A stretch of 29,756 nt of DNA from a virus (lineage: Duplodnaviria; Caudoviricetes), in the IMG/VR virus record IMGVR_UViG_3300017766_003214, positions 1-29,756 of that record. One strand, 5' to 3'. The position numbers and the translations under genes were made by a program. Below are positions 1,416-5,804 of the stretch, piece by piece (within the stretch, counting starts at the first letter, position 1; each line of letters begins with the position of its first letter). The notes under the pieces are model-generated. The model did not search any database. It saw only the letters and a list, made by a program, of their open reading frames with translations, and was not told the origin of the DNA.

Positions 1416-1625
1416 ATGAGCGACACCAACGAACGAAAGCTGATCGCCAGGATCGCCGACCAGGACCTGATCATCCGGCGTCTGATCGGCGCCGGCAACG
1501 ACATGGCTGCGGCCCTGGGCGAGGGCTGCGCCCACGATGAGGACGGCTGCGATGCCTGTGTCGCCGCCGTGGCCGTATGGGACCGGCTCTACCGGGAGAT
1601 CAAAAGAAACGACAAGGCCCCGTAA
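1416..1625 (+). CDS. Small hypothetical protein (CAHDEDGCDAC, possible metal site)
   Basis: 69-aa ORF 4 nt after the previous stop, ending in a terminator. Confidence 0.65.
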   Translation: MSDTNERKLIARIADQDLIIRRLIGAGNDMAAALGEGCAHDEDGCDACVAAVAVWDRLYREIKRNDKAP

Positions 1626-1641
1626 ACCGGGGCTTTTTTGT
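1614..1641 (+). terminator. Rho-independent terminator
   Basis: GCCCCG-TAAAC-CGGGGC stem followed by TTTTTT. Confidence 0.85.
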
Positions 1642-1662
1642 GCCCCAATCTTTTTTGAAAAT

Positions 1663-1705
1663 AAGTGCAAATTACACTTGCATGCCCTGATAACACAGCC
1701 ATGTT
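1663..1705 (+). promoter_or_regulatory. Putative promoter TTGCAT(1678-1683)-N16-CATGTT(1700-1705) with an overlapping operator-like palindrome AAGTGCAA-A-TTACACTT (1663-1679)
   Basis: AT-rich tract just after a terminator; same geometry as five other sites in the window. Confidence 0.6.
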
Positions 1706-1710
1706 CCCAT

Positions 1711-2227
1711 CTGTCGCCGTTAACCCGGCACGCGTTTTTTGACAGTCCAACCAAACCGACAAGACCTGGCATAGGCCAGGCACACAACCCAGCTGGGCAA
1801 CCAGCTGGGCCACTTTACCGGCCCCGTACGGGGCCACCAACCGCATGAACCGACAACACCAGACTCCCTCAAGAGTCCGGGCCGGTAGCCCTCCAGGCGA
1901 CCCGGCCCGTCATGCGGATCCTTTACGCCCGCTCCTGCGGGCTTGACTAGCCGGATACTGAGACCGCCCGCGCCCACTACATTTCAGGGTACACGGCGGT
2001 TTCTACGAACCGGCAGTCTTCACTTTCCGGCAGCAATGCCGGCGATCCGGTTCACCCTCCCGCGCAAGCGGGCGCCAAGCCGGCCAGAAACCAATAACCT
2101 GGAGCCCTCGGATCAGTAATGGTCCTCGGTACATGACAGGGCGCCGATAGCAATCGGCCCAGATGCCGTAAAACGCCTACGGGGGACATCGTCCGTATCC
2201 GGCCACGCGCGCCTCATCTCCGCGTGG
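1711..2227 (+). ncRNA. Candidate large structured non-coding RNA or structured leader; family not recognised
   Basis: More than 12 consecutive or nested stems, four closed by GNRA loops on the + strand (GCAA 1797-1800, 2033-2036, 2064-2067; GTAA 2116-2119); multibranch closure CCGCATGA 1841-1848/TCATGCGG 1910-1917; no convincing ORF. Confidence 0.7.
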
Positions 2228-2242
2228 TGTCTCTTTCTACTG

Positions 2243-2653
2243 ATGCGTAAGCAGCAGCCGACCCCCGTGGACACGGGCACACAGTCCACCGACGCCGGCG
2301 CGGTCAAAGCCGCCGGCAAGCCGAGCAAGTTCACGCGAGGCAAGGATGTCACCTTCAAGGTGAACTCCAAGCTGACCACGAACCTGATCACCCTCGGGCA
2401 TCTCGCGTACCAGGCCCTCGAAACGCCCGGTACCGACATCGACCTGGCGCTCTCCAAGCGTCTCTGGGTCCGCAGCGTCAAGTCGCTCATCGCTCTCCGC
2501 CTCGCCGGGGGCGGCAGCGTCCCCGCCATCAAAGGCGTGGATGTTGTCGCTTTCTACGGGGTCGAGGGCGTGAAGCCCAGCAAGACCGAAGCGGACATCA
2601 AGCGCCTGGAGGCCAGGATCGCGAAGCTCAAGGCCAAGCTCGGCAAGAAGTGA
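2243..2653 (+). CDS. Basic hypothetical protein with C-terminal coiled coil
   Basis: 136 aa, strong GC3 codon bias, Lys-rich C-terminus, followed by a hairpin. Confidence 0.8.
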   Translation: MRKQQPTPVDTGTQSTDAGAVKAAGKPSKFTRGKDVTFKVNSKLTTNLITLGHLAYQALETPGTDIDLALSKRLWVRSVKSLIALRLAGGGSVPAIKGVDVVAFYGVEGVKPSKTEADIKRLEARIAKLKAKLGKK

Positions 2654-2657
2654 ACCC

Positions 2658-2691
2658 ACGGGGCGCTCATCCAAAACGATGGGCGCCCCGT
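2658..2691 (+). other. 14-bp intergenic hairpin (processing, stabilising or weak terminator element)
   Basis: ACGGGGCGCTCATC-CAAAAC-GATGGGCGCCCCGT with one U-G pair; only a weak U tract follows. Confidence 0.65.
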
Positions 2692-2725
2692 CCTATTTAT
2701 GAGGGGCGATCCCTTTTTCCCAACC

Positions 2726-3133
2726 ATGAAACACAACCAACCCGGCAAGTGGACCGCGAGCGAGCTCGCCGACCATGCTGCCAAACAGGTTCCGGCTTAC
2801 CTTAACAAGCCGACCGAACGCCTGGTGCGGTATTACACCACGCGACAGATCCTGGACAAGCCCAACCGGACCGACGCCGACAAGCGCCGGGCCGTCTACG
2901 GCGAACGCCAGTTGTACCAGCTCCTGCTGGCCCTCGTGTTCAACTACGCGGGCCCGGGCGCCATCGAGGCCCACAGTCGCGGATACTTCCGCTTCCCCAC
3001 GACCTCGCAGACCGGCACGGAGCACGCGCTCCGGGATCTGTATCTCCAGGCAATCGGGCCCGGTGGCATCGCCAACAACGCTTACACGCTGAAGGTGAAG
3101 ACCAAGTGGCTGCCGAAGGGGGGTTCCAAGTGA
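2726..3133 (+). CDS. MerR-type helix-turn-helix DNA-binding protein
   Basis: WTASELA...TERLVRYYTTRQILDKP...RRAVYGERQLYQL resembles the MerR winged HTH; start moved to the ATG at 2726 (CCAACC-ATG context). Confidence 0.75.
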   Translation: MKHNQPGKWTASELADHAAKQVPAYLNKPTERLVRYYTTRQILDKPNRTDADKRRAVYGERQLYQLLLALVFNYAGPGAIEAHSRGYFRFPTTSQTGTEHALRDLYLQAIGPGGIANNAYTLKVKTKWLPKGGSK

Positions 3134-3594
3134 GCACCCCGGAGCTTAACCCGATCGAACCCAAGGTGCTGGAAGCCTTCTCCTATGTGATCGTCACGGC
3201 GGTCGAAGGCGGCCATTACACCCGGGACGATTACCGCGAATGGACCCAGTACGCGCATGCGGACGGCCCGGACGGGTTTTTCCAAGCTGCCGTGACTGTC
3301 TACCCCAACCGGGTCGGCAAGTACGACAGCGATGAGAAGCCCGACCCCGTGCGCGTCACCGCGGACTGGTTCGCCCGGCGCATCGCGCAGGGTTTCCTGC
3401 GCGGGATCGACAAGAAGTACCCCGGGCTCGCCTGGCCTCGCAAGCCGGCCGAAGGCCCGGAGATCCCGCCGGCGCTGTTCGACAAGGCAGCCCGGCTGCT
3501 CATCGGCGATGAAGATGTCGCCGGGGAGATCGATGTCATCGACGCCGGCGCGCTGCTTCAGGTAGCCGTCTACGGCGAGGTCATCTACGGATAA
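3130..3594 (+). CDS. Conserved phage hypothetical protein (AxEGG ... DAxxxxQxAxYGEVIYG type)
   Basis: GTGA overlap with the upstream stop; C-terminal IDAGALLQVAVYGEVIYG resembles a recurrent phage protein motif. Confidence 0.75.
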   Translation: MSTPELNPIEPKVLEAFSYVIVTAVEGGHYTRDDYREWTQYAHADGPDGFFQAAVTVYPNRVGKYDSDEKPDPVRVTADWFARRIAQGFLRGIDKKYPGLAWPRKPAEGPEIPPALFDKAARLLIGDEDVAGEIDVIDAGALLQVAVYGEVIYG

Positions 3595-3597
3595 CAA

Positions 3598-3656
3598 GGG
3601 CGAAACGCACCGGCACGGGCCGGGCGTCCCGGCGTCTCGCGCCGGCTGACGAGCCC
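3598..3656 (+). ncRNA. Type II hammerhead ribozyme; predicted cleavage after C3628 (GUC)
   Basis: Stem II GGGC 3598-3601/GCCC 3653-3656; GAAA 3602-3605; stem III ACGC-a-CCGGC/GCCGG-GCGT; GTC 3626-3628; stem I CCGGCG-TCTCG-CGCCGG 3629-3645; core CTGACGA 3646-3652. Confidence 0.92.
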
Positions 3657-3694
3657 CGTCAGTTAATCCAAACCAACCAAAAAACCGAAAAAAC

Positions 3695-4114
3695 ATGATC
3701 AAAAACCTCAACCCCGATGTCCTCAAGGCCCTGGCCGTGGACATCGACGCCGCGCTCAAGGCTGTCGCCGACAAGCATGGTCTCAGCATCACCACCGGCA
3801 ACAGTCGTTATGACGACCTGACCGCCGAAATGAAGCTGAAGATCAGCACGATCGATGACACCGGCGTCACCAACACGCGCGAACGCAACGCGCTCAACAC
3901 CTGGTCCGATCACCTCCTGAACGGGCTGCAGTACGGCGACAAGGTCACGCTGCTCACCCGCAAGGGCAAGCTGCAGTACTCTGTCGCCGGCTATGTCAGC
4001 CGGTCCGGTAAGCTGCAGATGACCGGCCCGGACCAAAAGACCTGGCTGTTTGACGCAGCCGCGGTCGTGGCGCAGATCAAGGACGGCAAGGCGTCCGTGT
4101 CCAAAGCCTCCTAA
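3695..4114 (+). CDS. Phage hypothetical protein
   Basis: 139 aa, A/C-rich leader, typical codon bias. Confidence 0.8.
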   Translation: MIKNLNPDVLKALAVDIDAALKAVADKHGLSITTGNSRYDDLTAEMKLKISTIDDTGVTNTRERNALNTWSDHLLNGLQYGDKVTLLTRKGKLQYSVAGYVSRSGKLQMTGPDQKTWLFDAAAVVAQIKDGKASVSKAS

Positions 4115-4115
4115 C

Positions 4116-4544
4116 ATGGGCCTGGACATGTTCGCCCTGTCGTGTGACCCGGCCAAGGTCACGCGCACCGATCTGGGCGTGGATCAGCTTCCCTCGTGGC
4201 ACCCGGACACCCCGGCTGACGCGACCATGATCCACACCTGGCGCAAGCACCCGGACCTCCACCAATGGATGACCGACCTGTACTTCCGTAAGGAAGCGCT
4301 GGAAGGCCCCATCACCGAAGCTGAAATGGGCCCGGCCTTCAACATGGGCCAGTTCGTGCGCCTCACGGATCACGACCTGGATCAGCTTGAAGCCGCTGTC
4401 GAAGCCGGCGCGCTGCCCAAGGCCGCCGGCTTTTTCTGGGGCGTCAGCACCCCGGACGACCGCAAGGACGACCTGGCCTTCATCAAGAAGGCCCGGAAGG
4501 CCCTCAAGGCCGGCAAGGCGGTGTTCTACACCTCGTGGTGGTGA
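4116..4544 (+). CDS. Conserved phage protein of the MGLDM...WRKH...YxSWW type
   Basis: Starts MGLDMF 1 nt after the previous stop; HTWRKHPDLHQWM, GFFWG and FYTSWW motifs. Confidence 0.8.
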   Translation: MGLDMFALSCDPAKVTRTDLGVDQLPSWHPDTPADATMIHTWRKHPDLHQWMTDLYFRKEALEGPITEAEMGPAFNMGQFVRLTDHDLDQLEAAVEAGALPKAAGFFWGVSTPDDRKDDLAFIKKARKALKAGKAVFYTSWW

Positions 4545-4564
4545 TCGGTTTGGTTGGCTGTCTC

Positions 4565-4595
4565 GGGCCCGGGGTTCATCCCCCGGGCCTTTTTT
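4565..4595 (+). terminator. Rho-independent terminator
   Basis: GGCCCGGGG-TTCATC-CCCCGGGCC followed by TTTTTT. Confidence 0.88.
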
Positions 4596-4713
4596 GTGCC
4601 CGGCGCTGTCAGCACATGATCACGAAAACGACCCTTTCCGGTTCGGAAAACCCATTTTGGTTATCCGAACGGACATAAAAGGCCCGTTCCTGTGATCATA
4701 CGCTGACAGTAGA

Positions 4714-4971
4714 TTAGATCAGCCGGCGCCAGCGCGGCAGATCCTGCCGGGCCTTGCGCAGCTTCAGCCGGTACCGGCGCATCACCTGGGCCTTGCGCGC
4801 GCGCCGATCCGCAGCCCGGCGCCGGCTCTCAGCCACCTGGCAGCGCTGCTTGTCCAGGCGGTCTTGGTACCACGCGAACATCGACCCCACCGGCCAGGCC
4901 GGCAGCTTCAGGCGCCGGATCACGCGCGGCACCGATCCCACAGGATCGAGAAATTCGCTGTTTTCGGCCAT
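4714..4971 (-). CDS. Small Arg-rich hypothetical protein (start uncertain)
   Basis: 85-aa minus-strand frame (MAENSEFLDP...) with plausible codon use; no recognisable motif. Confidence 0.4.
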   Translation of the reverse strand: MAENSEFLDPVGSVPRVIRRLKLPAWPVGSMFAWYQDRLDKQRCQVAESRRRAADRRARKAQVMRRYRLKLRKARQDLPRWRRLI

Positions 4972-4974
4972 TAT

Positions 4975-5330
4975 TTTGAGGAAAGTTCCTCGTTTTGGGA
5001 ATTTCATGAAACCCCAATGTTTTTGAGACATCCCGGAAAGACAAGCCCATCAGCTGACACTAGCGTGGTCGGCTGCCTTTCCACGCTGCCTTGCACGCCA
5101 GGCGTGCGCAACCTCATGCAGATCAGCCCCATGCAGCCAGGCGTAGATCGGCCCGGTGATCGCCTGACTTGCGCGCGAGGAAGCTTTTCCTTTCCTGTCT
5201 ACGCATCAAACCCCCGTAAACATTAGAGGAAAGTGAGTCTCCCTACGGGATAGGTTAAGACGCCCTAACGGGCTGTCGTTAACCCCCTTAGCCCTGACGG
5301 GCAGGGGGCACGACCCGTTAACTCTGATCT
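4975..5330. other. Palindrome-rich non-coding region (candidate origin or regulatory hub)
   Basis: GAGGAA-AG-TTCCTC 4978-4991, TTTCATGAAA 5002-5011, TCCCTACGGGA 5240-5250, GCCCTAACGGGC 5262-5273, GCCCTGACGGGC 5291-5302. Confidence 0.45.
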
Positions 5331-5369
5331 CGCGTAGGCCGGACCCCATCCTCACAACCTGGACAACCC

Positions 5370-5804
5370 ATGAAAGTCATCCTGATCGTCAAAGGACACC
5401 CCAGACCTCAACCCAGGCCCAGGTTCATCAAGGGCAGAGCTGTCAGCTGCGCCGATCCCCTGGCAGCCGCCTGGAAAGCCCGGATCAAAGCCGCAGCTTC
5501 CCAGGTCCACCTGGAGCTCCCCAAAGGCCCTCTCAGCTGCAGCATGTGGTTCCGGATGCCAACCAAGGACCAGGCCAGGGCCGAGAAACCTCACACCCAG
5601 GTCCCGGACCTGGACAACCTGGCTAAGCTGGTCCTGGACGCGATCCAGGACACCGGGCTCCTGGTCAACGACTCCCAGGTCGCCAGGCTCAACCTGGACA
5701 AGACCTGGGCGCCCCTGGATCACTCCGGAGTCATGGTTGAGCTCGAAACCTGGGAACCCTCAGATCAGCGCGCAGAGCTGCCAAAGCCGGGCTGGCTGGA
5801 GTAA
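5370..5804 (+). CDS. rusA: RusA-family Holliday junction resolvase
   Basis: GHPRPQPRPR N-terminus; PDLDNLAKLVLDAI and LVNDSQV catalytic-region motifs. Confidence 0.9.
   Translation: MKVILIVKGHPRPQPRPRFIKGRAVSCADPLAAAWKARIKAAASQVHLELPKGPLSCSMWFRMPTKDQARAEKPHTQVPDLDNLAKLVLDAIQDTGLLVNDSQVARLNLDKTWAPLDHSGVMVELETWEPSDQRAELPKPGWLE

Follow-up and report, generated by a model that had tools for sequence, protein, structure and literature searches.

In the ribosomal RNA (rRNA) operons of Escherichia coli, the boxA signal anchors the leader strand of the transcript at the RNA exit channel, where it stays until the trailer has emerged (PMC10250234), and a Nus/SuhB loop is described at the same operons (PMC4807359). 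In Bacillus subtilis, a boxA with the ending UUUGAAA is bound by NusB (PMC13753749). Phages of the lambdoid type use boxA in nut sites that combine it with boxB and act with the N protein; the portions of the literature consulted describe no long-range trailer as part of nut. Here we describe a locus in a 29,756-nucleotide (nt) phage contig (IMG/VR record IMGVR_UViG_3300017766_003214, positions 1 to 29,756; hereafter the window) that carries terminase, portal and major head genes together with RusA. Two complementary arms in this window, almost 3 kilobases (kb) apart, are predicted from their sequence to form an rRNA-operon-type leader–trailer RNA helix whose start lies within a boxA-like signal. 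Our literature search, outside which most subscription papers lay, found no paper describing a leader–trailer helix together with a phage boxA.

An initial annotation of the window had described the arms as an 18-base-pair (bp) duplex with one bulge, and this description was confirmed. The 5' arm, or leader strand (1741–1759, GACAGTCCAACCAAACCGA; all features of the locus lie on the plus strand), pairs with the 3' arm, or trailer strand (4545–4562), through 5 bp, a bulged U1746 and 13 bp, giving 18 bp at −29.8 kcal/mol. Taken alone, the exact 13-bp inverted repeat is not exceptional, a length of at least 13 being reached in 14 of 200 shuffles of 1641–4600; the full duplex (−30.3) was equalled by none of 300 shuffles of 1706–4530. 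When the 28 kb downstream were scanned for partners of the 5' arm, the 3' arm scored −31.7 and the next best site −20.5, a margin of 11 kcal/mol. Folding of the entire predicted transcript, tried in three of the 13 loci, gave the arm helix in the minimum-energy structure each time. As annotated, the trailer fills the gap between the last stop codon and the terminator: its first base directly follows the stop of the fifth gene, g5 (TGA, 4542–4544), and its end lies 2 nt before the terminator hairpin. The predicted helix encloses the structured-RNA region and five genes, and a role as a processing stem, which the annotation had suggested, is possible. A closed-loop transcript had also been proposed; the helix stands, while the arms are not transcript ends, since a putative promoter and leader precede the 5' arm and a terminator lies behind the 3' arm.

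Scans with g5, RusA, the third gene (g3) and arm patterns yielded 12 relatives that hold both ends, which together with the window make 13 loci (nine in group A, four in group B). Both arms are kept in all 13, separated by 2720–3402 nt. Over the ten inner pairs of the helix, 127 of 130 cells are paired and three are broken; one further cell is U·G. Compensatory change, which the annotation had named as a check, was found in one column, A–U in nine loci and U–A in the four of group B, and in one locus (L029) a G-to-A change shifts the bulge. The trailer is never a perfect complement, as a one-base bulge recurs at the same junction, in the 5' strand in group A and in the 3' strand in group B. 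Within group A the boxA-like site and the 5' arm are invariant and the 3' arm differs once, while neighbouring segments occur in 5–7 variants. The interior, in contrast, is freely exchanged among relatives: RNA modules, tRNAs, a hammerhead ribozyme with the fourth gene (g4), and g5. In the two loci where g5 has been replaced by another gene (L023/L241 and L234), the trailer still stands directly behind the new stop codon. Searches farther afield were negative. A scan with a short 5'-arm pattern gave no relatives in 120 of about 410 matching loci, a g3 search of genome contigs gave no match, and 70 of 80 metagenome g5 loci (L038–L107) were distant, apart from the incomplete locus L056, and had no trailer behind g5.

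The key feature, absent from the initial annotation, is that the 5' arm starts inside an rRNA-type boxA-like site. The idea of a boxA was tested on bacterial rRNA loci. In a search blind to boxA, the strongest leader–trailer helix coincided with a boxA-like word in 29 of 42 operons under a loose pattern, one match being spurious. Of 30 loci from the Opitutales, 28 were usable; 24 have a canonical leader boxA at the helix, and 28 spacers give the form GTTCTTTGA(C/A/T)AGT(T/C). A matrix built from these 52 leader and spacer sites placed position 1734 first among 59,484 window positions, with 16.3 bits against 14.5 for the next, and the homologous site first in all 12 relatives. The phage element (GTTTTTTGACAGTC, 1734–1747) is a 14-mer identical to the Opitutales spacer boxA at 13 of 14 positions, position 4 being T instead of C. 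Its group B form is GTTTTTTGAAAGTC, and the groups differ at a position that is also variable in hosts. The initial G followed by exactly six T is invariant in 25 of 25 rows of relatives, which are partly redundant. A relaxed boxA–CAAC pattern had 46 matches, 13 in this phage family and four promoter-proximal in other phages; the remaining 29 were treated as chance, and the one read in context (L412) appears antisense to genes. In seven phage loci that share g3 and are more distantly related, no site is comparable to this boxA, the best scoring 4.8–12.9 bits vs 16.3.

The geometry of the pairing resembles that of host operons as well. In the window the 5' arm overlaps boxA positions 8–14, and positions 1–7 are unpaired with the trailer. 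The continuous helix of host operons begins at boxA positions 7–12, that of the phage at position 7–8 in group A and about 11 in group B. In whole Opitutales operons, the spacer boxA segment, where the 23S leader–trailer helix starts, pairs 2975–3081 nt downstream in 10 of 12 cases. Upstream, the 28 nt from the −10 box to boxA (boxA excluded) fold into a leader hairpin (1706–1733) in a boxB-like position, and 17 of 22 of its bases are identical to the 16S rRNA leader hairpin found in three genomes (L362, L365 and L371) that belong to a single Opitutales family, a match equalled by 1 of 1000 shuffles. The corresponding leader of phage locus L229 agrees with that family at 19 of 23 bases (0 of 1000 shuffles as good). 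Searched across the family, the leader-hairpin pattern had seven matches, six of which precede a boxA and 16S rRNA. A separate feature of the leader is its 5' CUGUC (1711–1715), which in group A folds can pair with the GACAG of boxA before the trailer is made and is poorly kept in group B; in these models such early pairing could mask boxA.

The leader is preceded by a putative host-type promoter (1648–1705), comprising an A/T-rich upstream tract, TTGCAT at 1678–1683, 16 nt, and CATGTT at 1700–1705. A strict sigma-70 scan did not pick it up; its layout is shared by seven loci of group A and by L416, an unrelated phage. From the end of the putative −10 box at 1705 to the boxA-like site there are 28 nt in the window; nine of the 13 loci have 71–75 nt here. 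An Opitutales-type host is suggested by the leader match and by a single named homologue. Promoter likeness was not used as host evidence because the promoter regular expression fits only 4 of 32 Opitutales rRNA leaders. Among five Opitutales genomes, NusB and RNase III scored over the cut-off in all five and Rho in four.

Compared with the rRNA-operon system, the phage unit shows the same succession of promoter, short hairpin, boxA and a leader strand pairing with a trailer about 3 kb on; its sequence matches Opitutales rRNA leaders and spacer boxA, and the phage relatives, though not the window, have tRNAs inside, as rRNA operons do. It differs in enclosing RNA modules and protein genes and no rRNA (Rfam gave no rRNA match in the window), in having a single boxA with U at position 4, and in a helix of only 14–19 bp whose trailer abuts the final terminator. 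With C4 absent and no rRNA enclosed, we do not class it as a member of that system; its boxA and leader–trailer architecture is, on the strength of the sequence likenesses, very probably derived from it. The lambdoid nut sites share with this locus a phage boxA behind an early promoter and upstream of internal terminators, and a first gene that is small, encodes a basic product and precedes a terminator-like hairpin. Here, in contrast, a hairpin precedes boxA, as in rRNA operons, and hairpins stand on both sides of it. The product of the first gene (g1) matched no protein family and nothing in the Atlas or PDB, and no homology to N emerged.

The host-type promoter and the small genes of unknown function suggest that the unit at 1678–4597 is an early operon. 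We put at roughly 55% the reading in which its boxA recruits the host Nus complex and pairing of the trailer releases that complex before the terminator. Host polymerase would start near 1709–1712, and NusB–S10 would bind boxA and thereby keep the leader strand at the RNA exit channel, with the growing transcript forming a loop, as in the E. coli rRNA-operon model. The complex would carry the polymerase through 0.5–1.3 kb of mostly untranslated RNA and past the internal hairpins, and may help the modules fold; Nus loading would be useful here because of this long untranslated array and the hairpins, which have full T-runs in some group B loci. The trailer would emerge about 35 nt before the termination point and pair with boxA positions 8–14 and the adjacent strand, stripping the complex where termination is needed. 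Because it would appear so late and cover the 3' half of boxA, release would fall exactly at the terminator. The duplex could also create an RNase III site. A more specific and decidedly speculative version makes the trailer a built-in antitermination off-switch: a deliberately weakened C4U boxA, loaded with Nus and possibly with g1 as an N-like helper, would stay attached across an exchangeable cassette of new small RNAs, tRNAs and early genes, then be stripped by the anti-boxA strand at the single terminator that has to function. Four things are particular to this locus: it spans a whole operon, its trailer abuts the terminator, its boxA has U4, and it is linked to the RNA family RAGATH-24.

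Several observations weigh against Nus recruitment and release by the trailer. BoxA position 4 is T in every phage locus and C in all 52 host sites used, and C4 is critical in E. coli (PMC5725501, Supplementary Table 2); that source lists C4A and C4T/T6C variants, and C4T alone was not seen among those tested there. Among 401 Verrucomicrobiota genomes, 92 contain the exact phage 13-mer, and counts for reversed patterns, read off and not summed, are of similar size, indicating no enrichment. According to PMC4807359, chaperoning of folding outweighs antitermination as the role of the E. coli rRNA-operon complex, and in the portions of the literature consulted we found no description of complex release by the trailer, a step that is our own inference. 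The phage helix is shorter than host 16S helices, its covariation amounts to a single event, and group B contributes the three broken cells and weaker helices (−17.8 to −22.5). Some of the 13 loci are near-duplicates (L229/L030, L017/L029). The host is known by inference only, and a phage tRNA matched only 1 of 201 Opitutales genomes, at 82%. Metatranscriptome contigs of four studies lie at 1981–4560, apart from one short foreign piece, and no contig includes the 5' arm or bridges the two arms.

The replacement of C4 by T in all phage loci also lends itself to a different account, in which the helix is an rRNA-operon-derived processing or stabilising stem only: boxA would be a decayed relic, its U6 run now a cleavage, pause or attenuation site, and the helix would serve RNase III or end protection and not Nus loading. 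RNase III is encoded in all five Opitutales genomes mentioned above, each of the six leaders that were folded has a stem ending immediately ahead of the U run, and the modules end in U-rich linkers resembling those behind tRNAs. Yet the initial G and six T are invariant in the 25 rows although boxA positions 1–7 are unpaired with the trailer, which suggests a protein site, and group B helices are only about 14 bp long, some with a mismatch. We regard this account as possible, though distinctly doubtful. Less credit still is due to the 3' arm and terminator acting as a 3'-derived small RNA, whose G/U-rich seed would repress A/C-rich early starts or pair in trans with the first RNA module, M1. 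The initial annotation had noted that the 3' arm also complements 3673–3688, and this second match is present, much weaker than the arm helix in the window (−18.2 vs −31.5) and at −15 to −19 kcal/mol in six loci; many early start regions are A/C-rich, and the seed-plus-terminator shape comes with a sub-threshold suhB/MmgR match (19.7 bits vs 41). Change in the 3' arm, however, goes together with change in the 5' arm, which proved its best partner in each of the nine group A loci scanned, and we consider a small RNA improbable. Partner switching of the arm onto the leader of the 3695 start, proposed in the annotation, is not supported, as that pairing is 13–15 kcal/mol weaker and absent wherever g4 is absent.

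If the arms acted as DNA, they would be inverted sites (an operator pair, or sites for looping or inversion), perhaps bound by the MerR-like product of the second gene, g2. Their mismatches do favour neither strand, one being G·U on the plus strand and one A·C, which is G·U on the minus strand, and g2 offers a helix-turn-helix lead. Against this, a one-base indel separates the two copies in 12 of 13 loci, always at one junction and on either strand; spacing to the promoter varies (27–75 nt); and the match to rRNA-operon RNA signals requires no DNA role. The inversion suggested in the annotation is contradicted by the relatives, none of which is inverted, the interior having one orientation in every one, and contigs from RNA runs contain no inversion joint. 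We judge a DNA role very unlikely. The annotation had proposed end pairing that holds two hammerhead products together or circularises the RNA, and in the 6 of 13 loci that have the hammerhead, such a helix would indeed link both products physically. Seven of the 13 loci, however, keep both arms with hammerhead and g4 missing, and the arms are internal to the predicted transcript. The same contigs show no back-joint, a weak test since only contigs were searched; two of them (X1 and X6) stop near the hammerhead, at 3602 and 3601, and were not counted, X1 having a loose end and no bridging by a DNA run being shown. X1 also covers structural genes, so that DNA and whole-infection RNA are indistinguishable in it. 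The circular or hammerhead-tethered RNA is, in our estimate, the most remote of the explanations considered.

Four other phage records have a canonical boxA followed by CCAAC right behind a promoter-like site, and in three of these records scanned for a long-range boxA partner none stands out. An 18-mer boxA–CCAAC pattern was found in 0 of 401 Opitutales genomes. RAGATH-24 (RF03049) was found at 2687–2793 of L406, at 5001–5107 of L416 and at 4760–4833 (minus strand) of L441. In these three it begins inside a canonical boxA, 14–16 nt behind a promoter-like site, and heads small-gene regions punctuated by repeated terminator-like hairpins. Its consensus starts with UUGACAGuCCaa, the same letters as the phage 5' arm, and its GUCC is paired in all three; its closing helix, in contrast, is local, about 70–100 nt. 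The window element itself is not RAGATH-24, as no covariance-model match was found in the window at E up to 5. The main text of PMC5737381, probably the paper from which the family comes, mentions neither RAGATH nor boxA. As part of the off-switch proposal, RAGATH-24 might tentatively be regarded as a short-range form of the boxA-capturing helix.

Between the arms, the transcript begins with a structured RNA module array (1760–2240; fold z = −7.9) consisting of M1 (to 1816), M2 (1817–1924), M3 (1925–2026) and M4 (from 2027), with (A/C)CTTT linkers at module ends. M3 folds into a hairpin and a long interrupted helix with two-sided change at 11 of 28 pairs, belongs to no Rfam family, and was found in the window, L001, L002, L003 and L005. 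Relatives also exchange at least six further module types, and one to three tRNA genes lie between U-rich linkers of the same array in L002, L003, L005, L015, L032 and L433. In the window, a tRNA and transfer-messenger RNA search found none, and Rfam gave no match at gathering score; in 1500–5400 all matches were sub-threshold. The array is followed by g1 (2243–2653), encoding a basic protein of 136 amino acids (aa) of no known family, and by an internal terminator-like hairpin with a weak tail (2658–2700), which has a full T-run at the same place in the group B loci L241 and L234. Next come g2 (2726–3133, 135 aa), whose MerR-like helix-turn-helix assignment is a lead only (Pfam MerR_1, E = 0.078; Atlas score 0.89), and g3 (3130–3594, 154 aa; phrog_2355, function unassigned).

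The type II hammerhead ribozyme (RF02276, 3598–3656) retains an intact core (GAAA, GUC and CUGACGA) and three stems with two-sided change at 6 of 20 pairs; cleavage is predicted after GUC 3628. It scores below the Rfam gathering threshold (20.1 vs 37 bits) and is an optional cassette here, travelling with g4 (3695–4114, 139 aa, no assigned function), whose A/C-rich leader (3668–3694) holds the weak second match of the trailer. Because the interior is exchanged and hammerhead and g4 occur in only 6 of 13 loci, the ribozyme is not part of the arm system, contrary to the ribozyme-centred system of the initial annotation; it is better seen as an independent cassette that probably sets the 5' end of the g4–g5 message. 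Another type II hammerhead lies between early genes of a more distant phage (L024, 9105–9195, minus strand) with the same CTTGCA promoter style, and no boxA site was found there. The unit ends with g5 (4116–4544), which encodes a widespread 142-aa protein without assigned function, the trailer, and an intrinsic terminator (4565–4597, hairpin 4565–4590) whose hairpin sequence varies among relatives whereas the arm does not.

Outside the unit, a terminator-like hairpin with T-run (1617–1639, hairpin 1617–1633) closes the upstream gene cluster, and a PAPS-reductase-like gene (527–1411, phrog_424) has one named relative in a Verrucomicrobiales metagenome-assembled genome. Directly after the closing terminator lies an imperfect 104-bp palindrome (4606–4709; 32-nt arms, 78%), origin- or operator-like, and a related GATCA...GATCAT palindrome is present in L017 and L234. 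The very long open reading frame at the right end of the window encodes two HNHPS motifs, at about 27420 and about 29005, which we take to be typical of JAB/RadC domains.

How the Nus complex of rRNA operons departs from RNA polymerase is not settled in the portions of the literature examined. A compact phage unit with an anti-boxA strand before its terminator would make release by pairing testable without deleting essential rRNA. The locus points to an Opitutales-type host, may give the first clue to what RAGATH-24 does, and brings to light several structured RNAs that are unclassified. It suggests that phages reuse the whole layout of the rRNA operon, and not boxA alone, for exchangeable RNA and gene cassettes.

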